This document shows positions 18,630-35,290 of a DNA stretch of 64,000 nt, piece after piece. A model generated the notes under the pieces. It did not search any database. It worked only from the letters and a program-made list of their open reading frames with translations, and had not been told where the DNA came from. A program made the translations under genes and the position numbers. The stretch lies in the NCBI RefSeq assembly GCF_058153355.1, contig NZ_CM177019.1. One strand, written 5' to 3'. Numbering within the stretch: position 1 is the stretch's first letter; every line of letters starts with the position of its first letter.

Positions 18630-21497
18630 ATGGGCATCAAACAACACAATGGGAATACCAAAGCCGATCGTCTCGCTGAATTAAAAATCCGTTCGCCCTC
18701 CATTCAACTGATAAAATATGGCGCTATTGGTTTGAATGCAATTATCTTTTCCCCCCTGCTGATAGCTGCTGATTTAGGAAGTCAAAATGGCACCAATATT
18801 ACTATTAATGATGGTGACAGAATTACAGGAGATACCGCCGATCCATCAGGAAACCTCTATGGTGTAATGACCCCAGCAGGAAACACGCCTGGCAATATCA
18901 ACCTGGGTGATGATGTCACCGTCAATGTCAACGACGCCTCTGGATATGCAAAGGGAATCATTATTCAGGGCAAGAACAGCTCTCTGACAGCTAACCGACT
19001 TACAGTAGATGTTGTTGGTCAAACCTCTGCCATCGGCATTAATTTAATTGGTGACTATACACATGCTGACTTAGGCACAGGCAGCACCATTAAGAGTAAC
19101 GATGACGGCATCATTATTGGGCATAGCTCAACACTAACAGCCTCTCAATTCACCATTGAAAACTCGAACGGTATAGGCCTAACCATCAATGACTATGGCA
19201 CCAGTGTCGATCTTGGAAGCGGTAGTAAAATCAAGACCGATGGAAGTACAGGTGTTTATATCGGTGGTCTCAACGGCAATAACGCCAACGGTGCTGCGCG
19301 TTTTACGGCGACAGACCTGACAATCGATGTTCAGGGCTACAGCGCCATGGGAATAAACGTACAGAAAAACTCTGTTGTCGATCTCGGAACAAACAGTACC
19401 ATTAAAACCAATGGCGATAATGCACACGGCCTCTGGAGCTTTGGCCTGGTGAGCGCGAATGCACTCACTGTTGATGTAACTGGAGCCGCTGCCAATGGCG
19501 TCGAAGTTCGTGGTGGTACAACCACTATCGGTGCTGATAGCCATATTTCTTCCGCGCAGGGCGGTGGCCTCGTAACCAGTGGTTCAGACGCGACAATCAA
19601 TTTTTCTGGCACGGCAGCGCAACGAAACAGCATCTTTTCCAGCGGTTCTTATGGTGCCTCAGCCCAGACGGCAACGGCTGTTATCAACATGCAAAATACC
19701 GATATTACGGTTGATCGTAATGGCAGTCTGGCGCTGGGTTTGTGGGCGCTCAGCGGCGGTAGAATAACCGGAGACAGTTTGGCTATCACCGGCGCGGCAG
19801 GAGCCAGGGGGATTTATGCCATGACCAACAGCCAGATCGATCTCACGAGCGATCTGGTCATTGATATGAGTACACCCGACCAGATGGCCATCGCAACGCA
19901 ACATGACGATGGTTATGCCGCCAGCCGCATCAACGCTTCGGGTCGTATGCTTATCAACGGTAGCGTTCTTTCTAAAGGTGGGCTAATCAATCTGGATATG
20001 CACCCTGGGTCGGTTTGGACAGGTTCTTCCCTCAGCGATAATGTCAATGGCGGGAAACTGGACGTTGCAATGAATAACAGCGTCTGGAACGTAACAAGTA
20101 ATTCTAATCTCGACACGCTGGCGCTGAGCCATTCAACTGTCGATTTTGCCAGCCACGCGTCAACTGCCGGCACATTTACCACATTAAACGTAGAGAACCT
20201 TAGCGGTAACAGTACCTTTATTATGCGTGCTGATGTTGTTGGCGAGGGTAATGGCGTTAATAATAAAGGAGATTTATTGAATATCTGCGGGAGTAGTGCT
20301 GGTAATCACGTATTGGCTATCCGTAACCAGGGCAGCGAGGCCACAACGGGAAATGAAGTTCTGACAGTGGTAAAAACCACTGACGGCGCGGCCTCGTTCA
20401 GCGCGTCTTCTCAGGTTGAGTTGGGGGGATATCTGTATGATGTGCGTAAAAATGGCACTAACTGGGAGCTTTATGCTTCCGGGACAATTCCGGAGCCGAC
20501 TCCTAATCCAGAGCCCACACCAGCTCCCGCTCAGCCCCCCATAGTCAACCCCGATCCTACGCCTGCCCCCGCTCCCACGCCTAAACCCACCACGACCGCA
20601 GATGCTGGCGGCAATTATCTCAATGTCGGTTACTTATTGAACTATGTTGAAAACCGTACGCTGATGCAACGGATGGGTGACCTGCGAAATCAGGGTAAAG
20701 ACGGTAATATCTGGTTGCGCAGTTATGGGGGAAGCCTGGACTCCTTTGCCAGTGGCAAACTGAGCGGCTTTGACATGGGTTACAGCGGTATCCAGTTTGG
20801 TGGGGATAAACGTCTCTCTGATGAAATGCCGTTGTATGTCGGTCTGTATATTGGCTCAACACATGCATCGCCGGACTATAGCGGAGGCGACGGTACCGCA
20901 CGTTCAGACTACATGGGAATGTACGCCAGTTACATGGCACACAACGGTTTTTACAGCGATCTCGTTGTAAAAGCATCGCACCAGAAAAATAGTTTCCACG
21001 TACTGGACAGTCAGAACAACGGCGTTAACGCCAACGGCACTGCGAATGGATTGAGCATCTCCCTGGAAGCCGGGCAGAGGTTCAACCTGACCCCTACTGG
21101 TTATGGGTTCTATATAGAGCCGCAAACCCAGCTCACATACAGCCACCAGAATGGGATGGCTATGAAGGCGAGTAATGGTCTCAATATACATCTGAATCAC
21201 TACGAATCGCTGCTGGGGCGTGCCAGCATGATACTGGGATATGACATCACCGCAGGCAACAGCCAGCTGAATGTCTATGTGAAGACTGGCGCTATCCGCG
21301 AGTTTTCAGGGGATACCGAATATCTGTTGAACAACTCCCGGGAGAAGTACAGTTTCAAAGGTAATGGCTGGAATAACGGCGTGGGAGTCAGTGCACAGTA
21401 TAACAAACAGCACACATTCTATCTCGAAGCGGATTACACGCAGGGTAACCTCTTTGATCAGAAGCAAGTCAACGGAGGATATCGCTTCAGCTTTTAA
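18630..21497 (+). CDS. ycgV: AIDA-I/Ag43-type autotransporter adhesin (YcgV-like)
   Basis: ORF track 955 aa; repetitive Gly/Thr/Asn-rich passenger, Pro-rich linker (PEPTPNPEPTPAPAQPPIVNPDPTPAPAPTPKPTT) and C-terminal beta-barrel ending ...GYRFSF; position between ychF and dhaR. Confidence 0.85.
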   Translation: MGIKQHNGNTKADRLAELKIRSPSIQLIKYGAIGLNAIIFSPLLIAADLGSQNGTNITINDGDRITGDTADPSGNLYGVMTPAGNTPGNINLGDDVTVNVNDASGYAKGIIIQGKNSSLTANRLTVDVVGQTSAIGINLIGDYTHADLGTGSTIKSNDDGIIIGHSSTLTASQFTIENSNGIGLTINDYGTSVDLGSGSKIKTDGSTGVYIGGLNGNNANGAARFTATDLTIDVQGYSAMGINVQKNSVVDLGTNSTIKTNGDNAHGLWSFGLVSANALTVDVTGAAANGVEVRGGTTTIGADSHISSAQGGGLVTSGSDATINFSGTAAQRNSIFSSGSYGASAQTATAVINMQNTDITVDRNGSLALGLWALSGGRITGDSLAITGAAGARGIYAMTNSQIDLTSDLVIDMSTPDQMAIATQHDDGYAASRINASGRMLINGSVLSKGGLINLDMHPGSVWTGSSLSDNVNGGKLDVAMNNSVWNVTSNSNLDTLALSHSTVDFASHASTAGTFTTLNVENLSGNSTFIMRADVVGEGNGVNNKGDLLNICGSSAGNHVLAIRNQGSEATTGNEVLTVVKTTDGAASFSASSQVELGGYLYDVRKNGTNWELYASGTIPEPTPNPEPTPAPAQPPIVNPDPTPAPAPTPKPTTTADAGGNYLNVGYLLNYVENRTLMQRMGDLRNQGKDGNIWLRSYGGSLDSFASGKLSGFDMGYSGIQFGGDKRLSDEMPLYVGLYIGSTHASPDYSGGDGTARSDYMGMYASYMAHNGFYSDLVVKASHQKNSFHVLDSQNNGVNANGTANGLSISLEAGQRFNLTPTGYGFYIEPQTQLTYSHQNGMAMKASNGLNIHLNHYESLLGRASMILGYDITAGNSQLNVYVKTGAIREFSGDTEYLLNNSREKYSFKGNGWNNGVGVSAQYNKQHTFYLEADYTQGNLFDQKQVNGGYRFSF

Positions 21498-26922: not shown

Positions 26923-27203
26923 GCAATTTACTCTGCTCTGATATTTTTTAACTACCTGTTATATTTTTTACCAAATCATGATGATTTTTTCTGCGCTAAT
27001 CGCAAACCAAACGTCGCTGGCTGGCTAATAAACAGACGTTATTTAATCACTCTATTTCACCCTTATTTATCCCTTTAATCTCCTTTTCCAAAATGCCTGA
27101 CAGTTCGCAGAATGAGATTTCGATCATGCAGTTAGTGCGATCCTGAACTAAGGTTTTCTGATACTTGAATACCGTTTTGTTCGGTTTCGCCCAAGGAGAA
27201 TGA

Positions 27204-27643
27204 TTGATGAAAGCCACCGCCCCTCCTCGCCCGCAAAAAATAGCGTTAATTCCCGCCTGCGTTTTGTTGTGTTTCGCTGCGCTAGCGGTGCAGGCAGAAG
27301 AAACGCCAGTAACGCCACAGCCGCCTGATATTTTGTTAGGGCCGCTGTTTAACGATGTGCAAAACGCCAAACTTTTTCCGGACCAAAAGACCTTTGCTGA
27401 TGCCGTGCCGAACAGCGATCCGCTAATGATCCTTGCAGATTATCGAATGCAGCAAAACCAGAGCGGCTTTGATCTGCGCCATTTCGTTAACGTCAATTTC
27501 ACTCTGCCGAAAGAGGGAGAGAAATATGTTCCGCCAGAAGGGCAGTCGCTGCGCGAACATATTGACGGACTTTGGCCTGTATTAACGCGTTCTACCGAAA
27601 ACACCGAAAAATGGGATTCTCTGTTACCGCTGCCGGAACCTTA
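27204..27643 (+). pseudogene. treA: Periplasmic trehalase treA, 5' fragment (codons 1-146), interrupted by IS insertion
   Basis: ORF track 146 aa with signal peptide; the frame ends at a stop created at the IS junction (...LPLPEP then TAG at 27642-27644). Confidence 0.9.
27636..27643. repeat. Target-site duplication GAACCTTA (left copy)
   Basis: The 8 bp immediately left of the IS are identical to the 8 bp immediately right of it (30113-30120). Confidence 0.85.
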
Positions 27644-27673
27644 GTAAGCGGCTCGCCAGAACCGTATTGATAT

Positions 27674-29245
27674 TTACTGAGAGCTCAGATCAACTTTCCA
27701 GGGCAACAGATCGCGTACCCGGTTTGCCGGCCAGTCCTGGATATGTTCAATGACGTAACGCAGCCACTTTTCTGGCTCCACATTGTTCAGACGGCATGTG
27801 CCGATCAGCGAGTACAACACCGCAGCATGTTCACCACCGCTGTCAGAACCCGCGAAGAGCCAGTTTTTCCGGCCTACGGCCACTCCCCGTAAGGCGTTCT
27901 CTGCGATGTTGTTGTCGATTTCCACCCAGCCATTACTGCAGTACACGTTCAGTGCATCCCACTGTTTCAGCAGGTATGCGAACGCTTTTGCCGTGTCCGA
28001 GTGACGCGACAGTGTTTTCATCTGTTGCTGTATCCAGTCATACAGTGACTGCATCAGTGGCGCGGCTCTGGCTTTTCTTGCCGCCAGACGCTGTTCTGCT
28101 GAACAGCCCCGGACCTCTGCCTCGATGGCATACAGTTCACCGATACGCTGCAGGGCTTCCGTGGTGATGTCGGTGGGCACTCTTGCATGCACATCGTGGA
28201 TTTTTCTCCGGGCATGAGCCATACATGCGGCTTCCGTTATTCTGCCGGATTCGTACAACGCCCGGTAACCACCGTAAGCATCGGCCTGAAGCACTCCGCT
28301 GTAACCGGCCAGATGATTCTGTGGATGGATACCTTTCCGGTCCGGGCTGTACGCGAACCAGACCGCCGGAGGCATTTCCGAACCGGCGTTACGGTCATCA
28401 CGAACGTAGACCCACAGCCGGGCAGTCCTTGTTTTACCGCTGCCCGGCTCCTGGACCGGAACGGGGATATCATCGGCATGGACTTTACCGGGCATCAGCA
28501 CATACTGGCGCAGGATGTCATACAGCGGTTCCAGCAGTTCAGCAACAGCACCTGTCCAGCGCCCCAGTGTGGCACGGCTCAGCTCCACGCCCTGACGACG
28601 GTATATTTCTGACTGGCGGTATAACGGCAGATGGTCTGCATATTTTCCAGCGACAACATGGGCCAGAAGCCCCGCTCCGGCATAACTGCGTGCAATGGGT
28701 TTTGAAGGCACCGGAGCCTGCACGATATGGTCGCACCGGCAACAGGCCAGTTTCGGACGTTGTGTTTCGATAACCTTAAAGGCGCTGCTGATAAGCTCCA
28801 GTTGCTCTGACACATCACATCCCAGAGAACTGAGTTCGCCACCACAGGCCGGGCAGCATTCCTCTTCCGGACGGATGACCCGGGTTTCACGGGGAAGTGA
28901 GGCAGGTAACGGTTTACGGGCTGAAGACTGGCGCAGGGGAGATGGCAGTACCGGGTCATATTGCTCACCCAGCGTTTCCGCCATTTCTTCCTGAAGAGCG
29001 CTGATTCGCTCCTGTGCTTCCTGTATCTGCCGTTCGGTTTTTGCACGAAGTTTTTCTGAGCTTTTACCGAACTGCATGCGCTGCAGTTTTGCAACCAGCG
29101 CCTTCAGCCGGTTGATTTCGGAAGCATAAGCCGCCACCCGCTGTGAGAGCAGGCGGTTGTATTTCGCCATCTGGCGGATGGTGTCCTGTTGCGTCTGCAA
29201 CAGTGCCCGCAGGCGGGCATTCTCATGAGCAAGTGAGGTGTCCAT
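27674..29245 (-). CDS. IS66-family transposase (orf3/TnpC)
   Basis: ORF track 523 aa; N-terminal coiled-coil/leucine zipper then a CxxC region, as I recall for IS66 transposases. Confidence 0.85.
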
Positions 29246-29264
29246 ATCCTCACTTTACAACGGG

Positions 29265-29612
29265 TTATATGCGGATGCCAGCGCGTTCCGTTCGTTTCGG
29301 GTGTTTCCAGTCGATGCCCTCAAGAAGCATGGATAACTGGGCCGGAGTAAGGTGCACCTTGCCGTCACGGGTGACCGGCCAGACGAAGCGGCCCCGCTCC
29401 AGGCGTCTGGTGAAGAGGCACAGTCCGTCACTGTCAGCCCACAACACTTTTATCTGGTCACCCCGGCGTCCGCGGAAGATGAACAGATGCCCGGAGAACG
29501 GGTCATCCTTCAGGACGTTCTGAACTTTTGAGGCCAGGCCGTTAAAGCCATTTCGCATATCGGTGATACCTGCAACCAGCCAGATACGCGAACCTGCAGG
29601 GAGAGATATCAC
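29265..29612 (-). CDS. IS66 Orf2 (TnpB-like accessory protein)
   Basis: ORF track 115 aa; MISLPAGSRIWLVAGITDMRNGFNGLA... recognised as IS66 orf2 type; overlaps orf1 by 4 bp. Confidence 0.85.
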   Translation of the reverse strand: MISLPAGSRIWLVAGITDMRNGFNGLASKVQNVLKDDPFSGHLFIFRGRRGDQIKVLWADSDGLCLFTRRLERGRFVWPVTRDGKVHLTPAQLSMLLEGIDWKHPKRTERAGIRI

Positions 29613-30037
29613 CGTCTCAGCTCCTGTATAAGCAAGGACAGCAGATTTTCATTCACTGCCCCGTTCAACCGAAGGGTGCCGTTTCTGAACGTAATCTCAC
29701 AGGAGATGCTGTGTATTTCCGGTGTTACTGACGGTCTTGCGGTCAGTGGCTCATTAGCCGGAGCAGTTGGGAGTTGGGCATCAATAGTGACAGGAATTAA
29801 CTGAGATTCTCTGCCTGATTCTGATGATGGCAATTTTATCTTCCCCTGCCGCCATTTCTGACGCCATTTGAACAACAGATTGGCATTAATACCATTGTCC
29901 AGGGCCAGTCTGGAAATTGAAACACCTGGCTGGAATGATGCTTCTATGAGTCGTTGTTTGAATTCAGGAGGATAATTCAGGCACCCTTTAGGCCTTCCCG
30001 GAGAGGCATTTTTTTGTATATCTGACATTTTTATCAC
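29609..30037 (-). CDS. IS66 Orf1 (TnpA-like accessory protein)
   Basis: ORF track 142 aa; helix-turn-helix-like N-terminus (PEFKQRLIEASFQPGVSISRLALDNGINANLLFKWRQ). Confidence 0.8.
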   Translation of the reverse strand: MIKMSDIQKNASPGRPKGCLNYPPEFKQRLIEASFQPGVSISRLALDNGINANLLFKWRQKWRQGKIKLPSSESGRESQLIPVTIDAQLPTAPANEPLTARPSVTPEIHSISCEITFRNGTLRLNGAVNENLLSLLIQELRR

Positions 30038-30112
30038 CCACTATTAATTTAGTGGTGGATACTTTGTCCAAAGCATCGGGAATTTGCCAGACGGTCCTGA
30101 TAAGACGCTTAC

Positions 30113-30120
30113 GAACCTTA
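30113..30120. repeat. Target-site duplication GAACCTTA (right copy)
   Basis: Identical to 27636-27643. Confidence 0.85.
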
Positions 30121-31381
30121 TGTCGTGCCGGGCGGACGTTTTCGCGAGGTATATTACTGGGACAGTTACTTCACCATGTTAGGGCTTGCCGAAAGCGACC
30201 ACTGGGATAAAGTTGCGGATATGGTGGCCAATTTTGCTCATGAAATAGACACTTACGGGCATATTCCCAACGGCAACCGCAGTTACTATTTAAGCCGCTC
30301 GCAACCGCCCTTCTTTGCCCTGATGGTAGAGTTACTGGCGCAGCATGAAGGCGATGCCGCGTTGAAGCAATACCTGCCGCAAATGCAAAAAGAATATGCT
30401 TACTGGATGGACGGTGTTGAAAACCTGCAAGCCGGACAACAGGAAAAACGCGTTGTCAAACTTCAGGATGGTACCCTTCTCAACCGCTACTGGGACGATC
30501 GCGATACGCCACGACCAGAGTCATGGGTGGAAGATATTGCCACCGCCAAAAGCAATCCGAACCGGCCTGCCACTGAAATTTACCGCGACCTGCGCTCTGC
30601 CGCTGCGTCTGGCTGGGATTTCAGCTCGCGCTGGATGGACAATCCGCAGCAGTTAAACACCTTACGCACCACCAGCATCGTACCGGTCGATCTGAACAGC
30701 TTGATGTTCAAAATGGAAAAAAACCTCGCCCGCGCCAGCAAAGCTGCCGGAGATAACGCGATGGCAAACCAGTACGAAACGCTGGCAAATGCCCGTCAAA
30801 AAGGGATCGAAAAATACCTGTGGAACGATCAACAAGGCTGGTATGCCGATTACGACCTGAAAAGTCATAAAGTGCGCAATCAGTTAACCGCTGCCGCCCT
30901 ATTCCCGCTGTACGTCAATGCGGCAGCGAAAGATCGCGCCAACAAAATGGCAACGGCAACGAAAACACATCTGCTGCAACCCGGCGGCCTGAACACCACG
31001 TCGGTGAAAAGTGGGCAACAATGGGATGCACCAAATGGCTGGGCACCGTTGCAGTGGGTCGCGACGGAAGGATTACAAAACTACGGGCAAAAAGAGGTGG
31101 CGATGGACATTAGCTGGCACTTCCTTACCAATGTTCAGCACACCTATGACCGGGAGAAAAAGCTGGTGGAAAAATATGATGTCAGCACCACCGGAACAGG
31201 GGGCGGCGGTGGCGAATATCCATTACAGGATGGCTTTGGCTGGACCAATGGCGTGACGCTGAAAATGCTGGATTTGATCTGCCCGAAAGAGCAACCGTGT
31301 GACAATGTTCCGGCGACGCGTCCACTCAGTGAATCAACAACACAGCCGCTAAAACAAAAAGAGGCGGAACCTACGCCTTAA
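30113..31381 (+). pseudogene. treA: Periplasmic trehalase treA, 3' fragment (about 420 codons), separated from its promoter and 5' end
   Basis: Reading through the duplicated GAACCTTA restores the frame ...[27 protein letters not shown] track 30125..31381 covers it. Confidence 0.9.
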
Positions 31382-31438: not shown

Positions 31439-31710
31439 CATCACGAAATACCACTCTTTCTACAGTCTATGCCTTTATTTTCTTTTATTAGGGAAGATTT
31501 TAATTTTATTTTATCAACTTGTTAATCATTACACCTCTATTTATATTTTCCCCCACTCCCCATTCTCCCTGACAATTTTCTTGTGGAACAAAGTGTTATT
31601 TAAGAAACAAGCAAATCATTCTGTCTCTTTAGACAAATTTTGACATCAAACATGATCTTTTTCGCTATATGTGTAAGTATATAGCGGTTTTAATTATCAG
31701 GATATTACTT

Positions 31711-32733
31711 ATGTCACTAACCAGACGGAGGTTTACACAGATTCTTGCGTCGACATTGTTCCTGCATCATCTGCCGTCCTTTGCACAATCAGTCAAATTC
31801 TGGGCCTCACTGACGCTTCCCGAAGCCCAAAACATTACACGCATCGTCAGCGCAGGCGCGCCCGCCGATTTACTATTGCTGGCTGTCGCGCCAGAAAAAA
31901 TGGTCGGTTTTTCCTCTTTTGATTTTGCCCGTCAGGCATTAATTCCATTGCCAGAGCACATTCGCCAGTTCCCCAGGCTGGGACGACTCGCCGGGCGCGC
32001 CAGCACACTCTCGCTGGAAGGGCTTATGGCATTACATCCCGATTTGGTCGTTGATTGCGGCAATACGGATGAAACCTGGATCTCCCAGGCACGGCAGGTT
32101 AGCGAACAGACACAAATACCCTGGTTATTGCTTAACGGGAAACTGGAACAATCAGCAGAACAGTTAACAACGCTTGGCAAAACGTTAGGCGAAGAGCACC
32201 GCGCCGCAGAACAAGCCAATCTCGCCAGCCGCTTCGTTGGTGAAGCTCAGGCATTCGCCACCTCACCCGCCGCTAACCTCAGCTTTTATGCTGCGCGCGG
32301 TCCTCGAGGGCTGGAAACGGGCTTACAGGATTCGTTGCATACCGAGGCGGCGGAATTATTAGGTTTGCACAACGTCGCGCAAATAGCCGATCGCCACGGT
32401 CTGACACAGGTTTCCATGGAAAATCTCCTGCGCTGGCAGCCGGATATTATTCTGGTTCAGGAGGCCGTTACTGCAGATTTTATTCGTCGTGATCCTCTCT
32501 GGCAGGGCGTGAAAGCGGTTGCGGAACAACGCATCTTATTTTTAAGTGGCCTGCCCTTTGGCTGGCTGGATGCCCCGCCGGGAATCAACCGTCTTCTGGG
32601 ATTACGCAGACTTCACGCCTGGCTGGATCCCGCCATCAATCGCCAGTTTAAAAGTGACATGCAGCATTACGCCCAACTGTTCTGGCATTGTTCACTCAGT
32701 GACGCCGACTATCAAAAATTGGTGGCGAGCTAA
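31711..32733 (+). CDS. Periplasmic substrate-binding protein of an iron-chelate/cobalamin-type (FecB/BtuF/FhuD class) ABC transporter
   Basis: ORF track 354 aa; probable start at ATG 31711 (MSLTRRRFTQILASTLFLHH..., twin-arginine-like signal); family assigned from overall sequence character and operon context. Confidence 0.7.
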   Translation: MSLTRRRFTQILASTLFLHHLPSFAQSVKFWASLTLPEAQNITRIVSAGAPADLLLLAVAPEKMVGFSSFDFARQALIPLPEHIRQFPRLGRLAGRASTLSLEGLMALHPDLVVDCGNTDETWISQARQVSEQTQIPWLLLNGKLEQSAEQLTTLGKTLGEEHRAAEQANLASRFVGEAQAFATSPAANLSFYAARGPRGLETGLQDSLHTEAAELLGLHNVAQIADRHGLTQVSMENLLRWQPDIILVQEAVTADFIRRDPLWQGVKAVAEQRILFLSGLPFGWLDAPPGINRLLGLRRLHAWLDPAINRQFKSDMQHYAQLFWHCSLSDADYQKLVAS

Positions 32734-33713
32734 TGAGAACCGTAAACGGATGTATTTTGCTGCTGGCAGCTATCAGTATCACTTTTGCCGCCGTAAGTGG
32801 GGCTTATCATCTCGATATGCAGCAACTGCTGGCGCTCATTCTTCGTCAAGAAAATGTTCCTGTGCAGGAACAAATTGTCTTCTGGCAAATCCGCGTGCCG
32901 CGTATTCTTGCTGCGCTGTTTCTGGGCGCGGCGCTGGCAGGGGCCGGAACCACCTATCAGGGAATGTTCCGTAATCCCTTAGTGTCACCGGATATTTTAG
33001 GCGTCTCCGCCGGTGCCGGACTTGGTGCCTGCGCGGCAATCCTGTGGGGATTATCCATTGTTTACATCCAGCTGTACGCATTTTGCGGCGGGCTGATGGT
33101 GGTCGCGGGCGTCTGGTTGATTACGCGTCGGGTGACCCGCCACGATCCGATCTTAACCCTGGTGCTGGTAGGCATTGCGTTAGGAACGTTGTGCGGAGCG
33201 GGGATATCGCTAATAAAAACGCTGGCCGATCCTTACACCCAGTTACCGTCAATTACCTTCTGGTTGCTGGGGGGGCTGTCCACCGTGACCTTACGCGATC
33301 TCTGCTATGCTGCACCGATCATTCTCATAGGCTCCTTGCCCCTGTTTTTTCTCCGCTGGCGCATGAATTTACTCACGCTTTCCGACGACGAAGCCCATTC
33401 GCTGGGACTGAACGTGACACGTCTGCGCTTTGGATTAATTGTCTGCGCCACACTCATCACCGCCAGCACGGTAGCAATAGCGGGCATAATTGGTTGGGTC
33501 GGCCTGGTCGTTCCGCACATTGCCCGCTTGTTGACCGGTCATAACCATCAGCAGCTGTTGCCCATGGCAATGTGTACTGGCGCGATTCTGCTCCTGCTTA
33601 CCGATACGCTGGCACGCAGCATTGGAACAACAGAAATCCCACTTGGCATTCTGACCGCTTTTGTTGGTGCACCGTTTTTCCTGTTTTTGTTGTTACGCGG
33701 AGGTCGCCAGTGA
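32733..33713 (+). CDS. ABC transporter permease, FecCD/BtuC family
   Basis: ORF track 326 aa, polytopic hydrophobic; start overlaps the upstream stop; stop overlaps the ATPase start. Confidence 0.8.
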   Translation: MRTVNGCILLLAAISITFAAVSGAYHLDMQQLLALILRQENVPVQEQIVFWQIRVPRILAALFLGAALAGAGTTYQGMFRNPLVSPDILGVSAGAGLGACAAILWGLSIVYIQLYAFCGGLMVVAGVWLITRRVTRHDPILTLVLVGIALGTLCGAGISLIKTLADPYTQLPSITFWLLGGLSTVTLRDLCYAAPIILIGSLPLFFLRWRMNLLTLSDDEAHSLGLNVTRLRFGLIVCATLITASTVAIAGIIGWVGLVVPHIARLLTGHNHQQLLPMAMCTGAILLLLTDTLARSIGTTEIPLGILTAFVGAPFFLFLLLRGGRQ

Positions 33714-34468
33714 CTTTGCTTGCCGTCCGTCATGCGTCTCTGGGTTACTCCCGCCATCCGGTGCTACGCGACGTGTCCTTCACCCTGTCGCAAGGAACAA
33801 TTTGTTGTCTGTTAGGAGCCAATGGTTGCGGCAAAACCACACTCATGCGCTCCATTCTTGGCGTTATACCGTTATTAAAAGGCGAGATCTTACTGGATAG
33901 CCTCCCTGTGCAGACACTCAGCCATCGCCAGCGCGCGCAGGCTATTGCCTGGGTGCCGCAGGCGCACGACGGCATTTTTGCTTTTAGTGTGCTGGATATG
34001 GTGTTGATGGGCCTGGCCCCCACCATAGGCGCTTTTTCCGTTCCCGGTAAGCAAGAACGCCTGAAAGCAACGGAGCAACTGGAAAAGCTGGGCATTTTGC
34101 ATCTGGCGACACGACGCTGGAATACACTTAGCGGCGGTGAACGTCAGCTGGCTTTAATCGCCCGTGCACTCGTCCAGCAACCGCGCTTGTTATTACTGGA
34201 TGAGCCTGCCTCCAGCCTCGATTTCGGTCATCAGATCCAACTACTGGACACGCTGGCGCAGCTCAAAAATAACGGCATGACAATGCTAATGTCGACTCAT
34301 CATCCGCTCCATGCCAACGCCATTGCCGACAGCATTATCCAGGTAGAGCCAGATGGACGAGTAACACAAGGCTTACCGACCGAACAGTTAACAACGAACA
34401 AACTGGCTGCCCTGTATCGGGTTTCTGCCGACCAGATTCATCATCACCTCTCTGCAATTAGCCACTAA
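33710..34468 (+). CDS. ABC transporter ATP-binding protein (FecE/BtuD-like)
   Basis: GTG 33710 preceded by GGAGG; Walker A GANGCGKTT, signature LSGGERQ, Walker B LLLLDEP; about 252 aa. The ORF-track version (33572..34468) includes a spurious upstream extension. Confidence 0.85.
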   Translation: MTLLAVRHASLGYSRHPVLRDVSFTLSQGTICCLLGANGCGKTTLMRSILGVIPLLKGEILLDSLPVQTLSHRQRAQAIAWVPQAHDGIFAFSVLDMVLMGLAPTIGAFSVPGKQERLKATEQLEKLGILHLATRRWNTLSGGERQLALIARALVQQPRLLLLDEPASSLDFGHQIQLLDTLAQLKNNGMTMLMSTHHPLHANAIADSIIQVEPDGRVTQGLPTEQLTTNKLAALYRVSADQIHHHLSAISH

Positions 34469-34477
34469 GGAACAATC

Positions 34478-35290
34478 ATGCTCATTGATGATATTGATTT
34501 TGCGGACCTTTACCTGCAGCAACTCAAGCTGGCCCACCGCACAGAAAAAACGCCGGATCACTGGGATCAACGGGCGGAAAAAATGGCGGAAAATTGCGCC
34601 TCGCCTACGGACAGCTACCTGCAACAACTGACCGCTAAAATTGATCTGCAAGGCGCGCAGACCTTATTCGATATGGGCTGCGGACCGGGTACCGTATCGC
34701 TGGCGCTGGCTGACAAACTCACGACGATTTATGGCGTTGATTACAGTCAGGGGATGCTGAAGGTTGCCGCCCGTCGCGCCGCCGCGCTAAAGGCAGACAA
34801 TGTCCACTGGATCCAGCGCGCATGGGAAGAGGACTGGAGTGACCTGCCACGCTGCGATATTGCCGTGGCTTCCCGCTCCACTCTGGTGGCTGATATGCGC
34901 CAGGCAATGAGCAAACTGAATAATCAGGCACGGCTTCGCGTCTATACGACTCATCTGGTCAGCACCTCGTTCGTCTCTCCAGCCATTCAGCGGGCGGCTG
35001 GTCGGGAAGTGATCGAATTACCCAACTATATCTTTGCGCTCAACGTCCTGTATCAGATGGGAATTTATGCTCACGTTGATTTTATCCGTGGACAAAATTG
35101 CCAACAGGATAACAGCACCTGGGAACGTTTTGAGCAGAACGTCAGCTGGAGTCTGGGCGCGCTTAACGACGATGAGCGTGAGCGGTTATATCGCTGGTAT
35201 CAACAACAAGATGCTCGTGCCCTCGCCCCTGCCAGCCGCGACTGGGCGCTCATCTGGTGGGATAGCGTACCGCAAGAGGCACTGCGATGA
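34478..35290 (+). CDS. Class I SAM-dependent methyltransferase
   Basis: ORF track 270 aa; motif I LFDMGCGPGTVSLALA; substrate unknown. Confidence 0.7.
   Translation: MLIDDIDFADLYLQQLKLAHRTEKTPDHWDQRAEKMAENCASPTDSYLQQLTAKIDLQGAQTLFDMGCGPGTVSLALADKLTTIYGVDYSQGMLKVAARRAAALKADNVHWIQRAWEEDWSDLPRCDIAVASRSTLVADMRQAMSKLNNQARLRVYTTHLVSTSFVSPAIQRAAGREVIELPNYIFALNVLYQMGIYAHVDFIRGQNCQQDNSTWERFEQNVSWSLGALNDDERERLYRWYQQQDARALAPASRDWALIWWDSVPQEALR

Follow-up and report, generated by a model that had tools for sequence, protein, structure and literature searches.

An IS66-family insertion sequence splits the periplasmic trehalase gene treA in an Escherichia coli chromosome

The interrupted treA locus

The window, a 64,000-nucleotide stretch of contig NZ_CM177019.1 (RefSeq assembly GCF_058153355.1), contains a treA gene interrupted by a 2469-bp mobile element. 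The order of the surrounding genes, dhaR-dhaKLM-treA-iron ABC transporter, is that of NZ_CP169399.1, and treA lies downstream of dhaKLM, as in E. coli. The features of the locus are as follows.

27207-27644, plus strand: treA 5′ fragment, 145 codons, encoding the signal peptide and the first 115 mature residues
27636-27643: left copy of the 8-bp target-site duplication, GAACCTTA
27644-30112, genes on the minus strand: complete IS66-family insertion sequence, 2469 bp
27644-27669: terminal inverted repeat at the tnpC-distal end (IRR by IS convention), GTAAGCGGCTCGCCAGAACCGTATTG
27674-29245, minus strand: tnpC, intact 523-aa IS66-type DDE transposase (NF033517)
29265-29612, minus strand: tnpB, 115-aa IS66 accessory protein with a GTG start (NF033819)
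29609-30037, minus strand: tnpA, short IS66-like accessory protein with a helix-turn-helix (HTH) domain (NF047595)
30087-30112: terminal inverted repeat at the tnpA-proximal end (IRL by IS convention), reverse complement GTAAGCGTCTTATCAGGACCGTCTGG
30113-30120: right copy of the 8-bp target-site duplication, GAACCTTA
30121-31381, plus strand: treA 3′ fragment, codons 146-565 and stop, which continues the frame of the 5′ fragment after removal of the element and one duplication copy

The upstream treA frame can start at TTG 27204 or at ATG 27207. The initial annotation placed the opening of the gene at 27204; the frame is open there, but the real start is probably ATG 27207, which gives a 145-aa fragment and a restored protein of 565 aa, the length of annotated treA. 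The stop that had been placed at codon 146 is present as a TAG at 27642-27644, formed by the junction itself, with TA from the target and G as the first base of the element. When 27204-27643 is joined to 30121-31381, so that the element and one copy of the duplication are removed, the undisrupted target site GAACCTTATGTCG is recovered and a single open frame without a stop or frameshift results; the in-frame joining on which the initial annotation had made its reading depend is exact. Against the TreA model NF009774 (cut-off 560), the 565-aa product of the restored frame reaches 1252.9 bits, and it matches periplasmic trehalase PDB 2JF4 over residues 31-565, with residues 1-30 lying outside the mature chain. 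Together, the two fragments would encode a full-length orthologue of TreA, the periplasmic alpha,alpha-trehalase of family GH37, and treA is an ordinary insertional pseudogene, split by a mobile element of a known family.

The boundaries of the element are sharply defined. Its terminal inverted repeats are imperfect and begin with GTAAGCG at both ends, as had been described, the terminal bases matching at 7/7 positions, then at 17/22 and 19/26. GTAAGCG is a typical terminus of the IS66 family, for which a relative in strain H10407 provides the one corroboration in this analysis. The 8-bp duplication claimed for both sides of the element is exact, and because two fixed positions would match over 8 bp by chance with a probability of 4^-8 (~1.5e-5), the repetition of GAACCTTA is not a chance occurrence. 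A target duplication of 8 bp is also that reported for IS66 (PMC6778807). Within the window there is no second copy of the IS and no composite transposon.

Comparison with intact genomes places the element in an otherwise undisturbed E. coli chromosome. In a BLAST alignment to E. coli MFDS1022581, the window is collinear over 6945-27643 and 30113-50810, both flanking alignments use the same eight subject bases (20693-20700), and the IS is the sole break in ~44 kb of collinear sequence, which makes a Shigella host unlikely. E. albertii, considered as a host on account of the best full-length IS relatives being on its plasmids, was rejected because the flanks match E. coli chromosomes at 98-99% identity. 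In 5316 of the 5426 complete E. coli genomes searched, a collection without Shigella genomes, the empty site aligns without interruption to an annotated treA, so loss of treA is rare.

Genes of the element and membership of the IS66 family

The three minus-strand ORFs that the initial annotation had listed (142, 115 and 523 aa, in the IS66 layout) all pass the cut-offs of curated NCBIfam (NCBI) models for IS66 proteins. TnpC scores 479.3 bits against the equivalog model NF033517 (cut-off 180), covering profile positions 4-386 of 387, so that the family homology on which the initial reading also depended is present. The protein contains the zinc-finger cysteines CPAC and CCRC (CxxC pairs) and the motif CMAHARR. 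An identical protein is recorded with the Pfam domains LZ_Tnp_IS66 (PF13007), zf-IS66 (PF13005), DDE_Tnp_IS66 (PF03050) and DDE_Tnp_IS66_C (PF13817) on E. coli draft contig ABXYKR010000031.1, the source of all Pfam assignments given here. TnpB reaches 127.8 bits against NF033819 (cut-off 50) over the full profile; PF05717 is recorded on the tnpB of the draft copy, and the exact TnpB protein is found among public E. coli records.

TnpA scores 88.8 bits against NF047595 (IS66_ISRel24_TnpA; cut-off 74), and its 85.9 bits against a second TnpA model, NF038385, lie under the cut-off of 150, which fits a short variant of the protein. The gene could encode 142 aa from GTG 30037 or 139 aa from ATG 30028, and the 139-aa form is more likely to be the true product. 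It is this form that is annotated in the E. albertii plasmid and E. coli draft copies, with Pfam domain HTH_Tnp_1 (PF01527), and an exact look-up of the 142-aa form in the protein collection gave no match because public calls use the ATG start.

The genes lie in the order tnpA-tnpB-tnpC on one strand. The overlap between the tnpA stop and the tnpB start reads GTGA, and a 19-nt spacer containing GAGGA separates the tnpB stop from the tnpC ATG. Translational coupling of tnpA and tnpB in the IS66 family is attributed to Han et al. 2001, as cited in PMC3469429. The founding and best-characterized members, IS66 and IS679, share with the window element the overlapping, coupled tnpA-tnpB-tnpC frames, the TnpC transposase, the 8-bp duplication and the imperfect repeats (Machida 1984; Han et al. 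2001; Gourbeyre et al. 2010, as cited in PMC6778807 and PMC3469429), whereas the window element has another sequence and a shorter tnpA. In its transposase, tnpB, tnpA, layout, ends and target duplication, the element belongs to the IS66 family. It is apparently functional, and near-identical copies occur at three different sites, each with a different duplication.

Relatives of the element and its mosaic structure

The 5426 complete E. coli genomes contain no full-length copy of the element and hold only truncated remnants of this IS type, and the 27-base tnpA-proximal end has 0 matches in 100,044 species-representative genomes. Copies of 2469 bp were found on plasmids pESA134_1 and pESA134_2 of an E. 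albertii bat isolate (NZ_CP070285/6), at 95.7-95.9% identity, and in E. coli draft genome GCA_047897835.1, on the F-type-plasmid-like contig ABXYKR010000031.1, at 99.8% identity (5 differences). The 2469-bp boundaries thus recur in three other copies, two of which have their own 8-bp duplications (CCTTATTC for an E. albertii plasmid copy and CACCGGAC for the E. coli draft copy) and one of which, in E. albertii, has unmatched flanks. These copies share the length, the architecture and the terminal 30 bp of the window element, the last 30 bases of the tnpA-proximal end being identical in the E. albertii and E. coli draft copies. In contrast to the window element, they lie in plasmid contexts and none is in treA: the sites comprise the interior of a Tn3-family transposase gene and a position adjoining an autotransporter and traM/traJ. 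The autotransporter beside the E. coli draft copy matched only a generic beta-barrel domain in NCBIfam and gives no clue to pathotype. The element is a rare variant in E. coli, probably carried on plasmids and shared with E. albertii. A literature search found no named IS66 element of E. albertii.

Among the closest known relatives are ISCro1-like elements of E. coli, such as a 2699-bp copy in enterotoxigenic E. coli (ETEC) H10407 (NC_017633), labelled by PGAP as ‘IS66-like element ISCro1 family transposase’. The two elements are 96.95% identical at the nucleotide level over the first 1968 bp, which comprise the tnpC-distal repeat (2 of the first 40 bases differ), tnpC and tnpB. The H10407 element likewise has a 523-aa TnpC, a 115-aa TnpB, an 8-bp duplication (ATCCGTAA in H10407) and GTAAGCG-type ends, although its tnpA-proximal end starts GTAACCG. 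The nucleotide similarity ends at element position 1968, at the tnpA stop/tnpB start, and none can be detected beyond it. The TnpA proteins (139-142 aa in the window versus 225 aa in H10407) are 41.6% identical over the C-terminal 120 residues only, tnpB starts with GTG in the window and with ATG in H10407, and the tnpA-proximal repeat and the total length (2469 versus 2699 bp) differ.

With only positions 1-1968 of 2469 aligning to the H10407 element, which stands in for ISCro1 here on the strength of its PGAP label, the window element does not appear to be ISCro1 or an isoform of it. By ISfinder convention, isoforms share high nucleotide identity over the whole element. Since the alignment is partial, the window element would count as a distinct IS under that identity rule.

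The element thus consists of an ISCro1-type tnpC-tnpB part (97%) and a tnpA module unrelated to that of ISCro1-like elements at the nucleotide level, with the breakpoint at the tnpA stop/tnpB start. Such an arrangement could reflect a modular recombinant in which ISCro1-type tnpB-tnpC and its repeat were combined with a different, short tnpA and its own repeat, a reading that we put at about even odds. In the 1968-bp region common to these elements, the window copy resembles the ISCro1-like element more closely (96.95%) than it does the E. albertii copies (95.4%), a pattern suggestive of repeated exchange, or of gene conversion, between IS66 elements that shared a host.

Origin and consequences of the insertion

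We explain the locus as a whole by the insertion of a complete, apparently functional IS66-family element at codon 146 of the chromosomal treA, with duplication of 8 bp of target, and assign this explanation a probability of about 0.95. According to this model, the 2469-bp element would have transposed into treA codon 146 in an E. coli lineage, duplicating GAACCTTA. The donor was likely a plasmid-borne copy, since the closest relative, with its 5 differences, lies on an F-type-plasmid-like contig. The insertion would leave the GH37 enzyme split, with the signal peptide and the 115 N-terminal mature residues on one side and everything else on the other; because of this separation and the TAG stop at the junction, it is predicted that no periplasmic trehalase would be made.

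The interrupted allele is not confined to the window. In an independent short-read assembly (Logan SRR8656992), a contig that also carries dha genes is 100% identical to the window over 4466 bp, has the same left junction and ends 29 bases into the IS; ~3 contigs are similar to it, and the exact 145-aa 5′ product is called on independent contigs. The treA/IS allele is common to several sequencing samples. An exact look-up of the 418-aa product of the 3′ fragment returned no record, so that the right junction is without confirmation in other samples; gene callers may use another start. A literature search for an IS in E. coli treA turned up no description of one.

The presence of the allele in several samples could be taken to mean that loss of treA was an adaptation favoured by selection and not a neutral or slightly harmful accident. 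A metagenome contig with a separate null mutation at the same treA codon (TAT to TAG) would fit such selection, as would the influence of treA on osmotic resistance, type 1 fimbriae and colonization (PMC6727828, PMC11228248). However, treA is intact in the great majority of complete genomes, the metagenome contig may be a chimera, and the samples may represent one clone or even one strain, given the complete identity of the SRR8656992 contig to the window. Published treA mutants are, moreover, attenuated and not fitter (PMC6727828, PMC11228248). Adaptive loss is consequently an improbable second possibility, weaker than the reading of the element as a modular recombinant.

The age of the insertion bears on whether the element might be a relic of considerable age, no longer active, and treA a gene that was lost long ago. 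The restored treA differs from the nearest intact allele at 19 nucleotides, 16 of them synonymous, and restored TreA differs at two amino acids from the annotated treA product of MFDS1022581. No complete E. coli genome has a perfect match to the sequence context of either private nonsynonymous change in the treA fragments (D172 and N347); some drift may therefore have followed inactivation, or a defect may have preceded the insertion, and ‘very recent’ is a relative term. An exact-sequence look-up of the restored 565-aa TreA gave no record, so no intact twin allele was found. These changes, together with the truncated state of the remnants in complete E. coli genomes, are what an old relic would lead one to expect, but the reading is less probable still: none of the three IS ORFs is truncated, a copy at a different site matches the element at 99.8% identity, the duplication is perfect and treA has no other stop or frameshift. 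The same intact features bear out the description of the insertion as clean and probably recent in the initial annotation.

The suggestion that the outward-facing end of the IS could influence the treA 3′ fragment fared less well. The ends of insertion sequences can carry outward promoters or -35 boxes, as discussed in PMC8764528, and a 418-aa ORF (GTG 30125) begins 5 bases past the right copy of the duplication, so that a promoter in the tnpA-proximal end might in principle drive this ORF or downstream genes with functional consequence. A consensus scan of 27000-30400, which is a weak test, found no plus-strand sigma-70-like site near the right end; its only promoter match was on the minus strand, inside tnpA. 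Two plus-strand terminator-like hairpins (29992-30007 and 30038-30058) lie just inside the right end, neither the signal peptide nor the first 115 mature residues of the enzyme of known structure are encoded by the 3′ fragment, and insertion of the related ISCro1 lowered downstream transcription and promoter activity in experiments (PMC8764528). We consider a functional outward promoter very improbable. Least credible is an assembly artefact, in which a repeat was misplaced in treA and the true chromosomal gene is intact, for although IS copies commonly cause misassembly and the window is the only assembly showing both junctions, a misjoin would not yield a perfect 8-bp duplication on both sides, the left junction is found identically in SRR8656992, where the assembly reads into the IS, and apart from the IS the flanking sequence shows perfect collinearity with a genome in which treA is intact.

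Insertional inactivation of treA by the IS66-family element would have consequences that can be anticipated from the literature on K-12 and extraintestinal pathogenic E. coli (ExPEC), and the strain would be expected to lack periplasmic trehalase and to use trehalose poorly at high osmolarity. Null mutants of treA engineered in E. coli K-12 and in ExPEC MT78 and BEN2908 have the same expected outcome, no periplasmic trehalase, with altered osmotic-stress behaviour, fewer type 1 fimbriae and growth on trehalose retained via TreB/TreC; such deletion mutants still grow on trehalose by that route at low osmolarity (PMC11228248). Unlike these engineered nulls, the treA of the window is a natural IS allele.

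The practical value of the finding is modest and mostly a matter of annotation, and it does not challenge current understanding. The treA gene should be annotated as an IS-split pseudogene and the three IS genes as one element, not as separate transposase genes, and the treA/IS junction can conveniently serve as a clone-specific marker for PCR. Periplasmic trehalase is predicted to be missing from the strain and its clonal relatives, which could matter if the strain is used in physiology or virulence work, because published treA mutants show altered osmotic-stress behaviour and type 1 fimbriation. For the IS66 family, the element would be a clear example of module shuffling. If the modular-recombinant reading is true, TnpA together with the end next to it would be a cassette that can be exchanged, with relevance to the still poorly understood part that TnpA plays in IS66 transposition.

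Structure of the treA insertion

The treA gene, encoding periplasmic trehalase, is split by a complete IS66-family element that carries the hallmarks of transposition. The 8-bp duplication encloses 2469 bases, and the ends of the element agree as terminal inverted repeats at 7/7 terminal bases, 17/22 and 19/26. The features of the insertion, with ORF scores against the NCBI curated equivalog models, are as follows.

27636-27643 and 30113-30120: target-site duplication, 8-mer GAACCTTA, on both sides of the 2469-bp element
27644: left end of the element, starting GTAAGCGGCTCGCC
27674-29245, minus strand: tnpC, 523 aa; IS66 transposase model, 479 bits (cut-off 180)
29265-29612, minus strand: tnpB, 115 aa; IS66 TnpB model, 128 bits (cut-off 50)
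29609-30037, minus strand: tnpA, 142 aa from GTG or 139 aa from ATG 30028, the start chosen in public annotations; IS66-like TnpA model, 88.8 bits (cut-off 74)
30112: right end of the element, ending the reverse complement of GTAAGCGTCTTATC
30197-30199: treA codon 172, Asp; Gly in the nearest intact allele, with two nucleotide changes within the codon
30722-30724: treA codon 347, Asn; Ile in the nearest intact allele

All three ORFs pass their cut-offs, and in a public record of the identical TnpC, Pfam marks the leucine-zipper, zinc-finger and DDE domains of IS66 transposases. The start of tnpB overlaps the stop of tnpA (GTGA), and tnpC follows tnpB after 19 nt, preceded by a GAGGA ribosome-binding site. 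The tnpABC order, tnpA/tnpB overlap and 8-bp duplication match the layout described for the family, which includes translational coupling, in PMC6778807 and PMC3469429 (both citing Han et al. 2001).

The upstream treA frame, most likely starting at ATG 27207, runs for 145 codons to a TAG at 27642-27644, to which the target contributes two bases and the element its first. With the element and one duplication copy removed, an uninterrupted open frame crosses the join. The window is collinear with Escherichia coli MFDS1022581, which has the nearest intact treA, across 6945-27643 and 30113-50810; the element is the sole interruption, and both flanking alignments use the identical eight subject bases. 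When the empty site was rebuilt (1400 bp), it aligned without a break to annotated treA in 5316 of the 5426 complete E. coli genomes, the best reaching 99.1% identity. The initial annotation had described an IS66-family insertion joining in frame across treA, and its duplication, boundaries, ORFs and stop were all borne out. The finding is real, correctly read and ordinary, an IS66-family insertion pseudogene that is mildly unusual only in the rarity of the element in E. coli and in its modular mosaic structure.

Restored TreA is 565 aa long and, at 1253 bits, exceeds the cut-off of 560 for the TreA model. Its residues 31-565 match the solved structure of periplasmic trehalase from E. coli (2JF4), and residues 1-30 are therefore the signal peptide. 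Compared with the nearest intact allele, restored treA has no stop or frameshift, and its 19 nucleotide differences (16 synonymous) change two amino acids, giving D172 and N347. Because neither has a perfect 61-base context match in the 5426 complete genomes, both look private to the lineage; they may reflect relaxed constraint on a pseudogene, or may be older than the insertion.

Other copies and mosaic structure of the element

The 2469-bp unit occurs at other sites with identical terminal 30 bases. One copy lies within a Tn3-family transposase gene on Escherichia albertii plasmid pESA134_1 (flanks CCTTATTC), and another adjoins an autotransporter and traM/traJ on E. coli draft contig ABXYKR010000031.1 (flanks CACCGGAC). 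These two insertions confirm the element boundaries. A third copy, on E. albertii pESA134_2 (NZ_CP070286.2, 1201-3669, 2469 bp), differs from the others in having unmatched flanking 8-mers (ACCCATAA versus GGTTAAAT), which suggests either that two copies recombined or that neighbouring DNA was deleted once the element had inserted.

The window copy is 99.8% identical to that on ABXYKR010000031.1, with only five differences, all synonymous and all in tnpB. These are packed into 94 bp (29397-29490), and their alleles form a mixed pattern when set against those of the ISCro1-like and E. albertii elements. The patch looks like a small gene conversion between IS66 relatives.

No full-length copy was present in the complete E. 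coli genomes searched, where thousands of matches end at element position 1968, the end of the tnpC-tnpB part. Over positions 1-1968, the window copy is 96.95% identical to the 2699-bp ISCro1-like element of ETEC strain H10407 (duplication ATCCGTAA); past position 1968, no nucleotide similarity to that element was detectable. The breakpoint is sharp and coincides with the tnpA stop/tnpB start (29609-29612, element position 1968/1969). TnpA has 139 aa in the window and 225 aa in H10407, with 41.6% identity across about 120 residues. In this common 1968-bp part, the window copy lies nearer to the H10407 element than to E. albertii copies of the same architecture, and this relationship therefore points to recombination among IS66 elements.

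The short tnpA module is found in complete E. coli genomes only within truncated remnants of the element, and several of these lie on plasmids with CFA/III pilus genes. On plasmids of ~100 kb, namely p16F5M1D101 of E. coli O8:H8 and its relatives, remnants made up of the short tnpA, tnpB and part of tnpC are 94-95% identical and adjoin the type IVb pilus genes of CFA/III (cof), suggesting that ETEC-type virulence plasmids keep the element in circulation.

Host lineage and independent samples

Broadly defined, the host is E. coli, of a lineage poorly represented among RefSeq complete genomes: for 30121-52000, the nearest shows only 98.9% identity across 21.9 kb, followed by one at 98.2%. The source of the window is missing from that collection and, to judge from the lack of its IS end, also from the GTDB species representatives. 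Coverage of 30121-52000 reaches 80% or more in only 2135 of 5426 complete genomes; some of the region is therefore accessory, possibly the cluster at 31669-38137. This cluster, directly downstream of treA, encodes an iron ABC transporter, a SAM-dependent methyltransferase, ModD and a TonB-dependent receptor.

The exact 145-aa truncated TreA product was called on five public contigs. One of them, a Logan contig (SRR8656992), matches the window at 100% identity across 4466 bp and breaks off after 29 bases of the IS, as a short-read assembly would be expected to do; about three contigs are similar to it. Given these matching contigs, the allele is real; either it is common to a small clone, or one strain has been sequenced repeatedly.

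A metagenome contig (ENA ERZ925685, k127_52625), whose positions 497-510 correspond to 27636-27644 and 30121 onward, encodes the identical truncated product without the IS, through TAT to TAG exactly one base past the insertion point. Upstream, it agrees with the window at every base (100%), the first IS base, G, included; the 256 bases downstream contain 8 mismatches. Either the same codon acquired a nonsense mutation independently, or strains with and without the IS were assembled into one chimeric contig.

Predicted consequences for trehalose utilization

The initial annotation had also proposed that the outward-facing IS end could influence the treA 3′ fragment, a suggestion that found no support. 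A promoter scan revealed no plus-strand promoter-like site near the right end of the element, and two plus-strand terminator-like hairpins lie just inside it. An insertion of the related ISCro1 lowered downstream transcription experimentally (PMC8764528). The fragment itself lacks an export signal and 115 mature residues.

The insertion would have arrived recently, plausibly from a plasmid donor copy, and we infer that it abolishes periplasmic trehalase. TreA splits periplasmic trehalose in hypertonic conditions, and TreB/TreC act on trehalose at low osmolarity; treA deletion mutants retain growth on trehalose, but their osmotic resistance is changed and they bear fewer type 1 fimbriae (PMC11228248; PMC6727828). 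Because TreB/TreC cover low osmolarity and treA mutants still grow, the trehalase-negative growth effect predicted in the initial annotation is reasonable for high osmolarity only.
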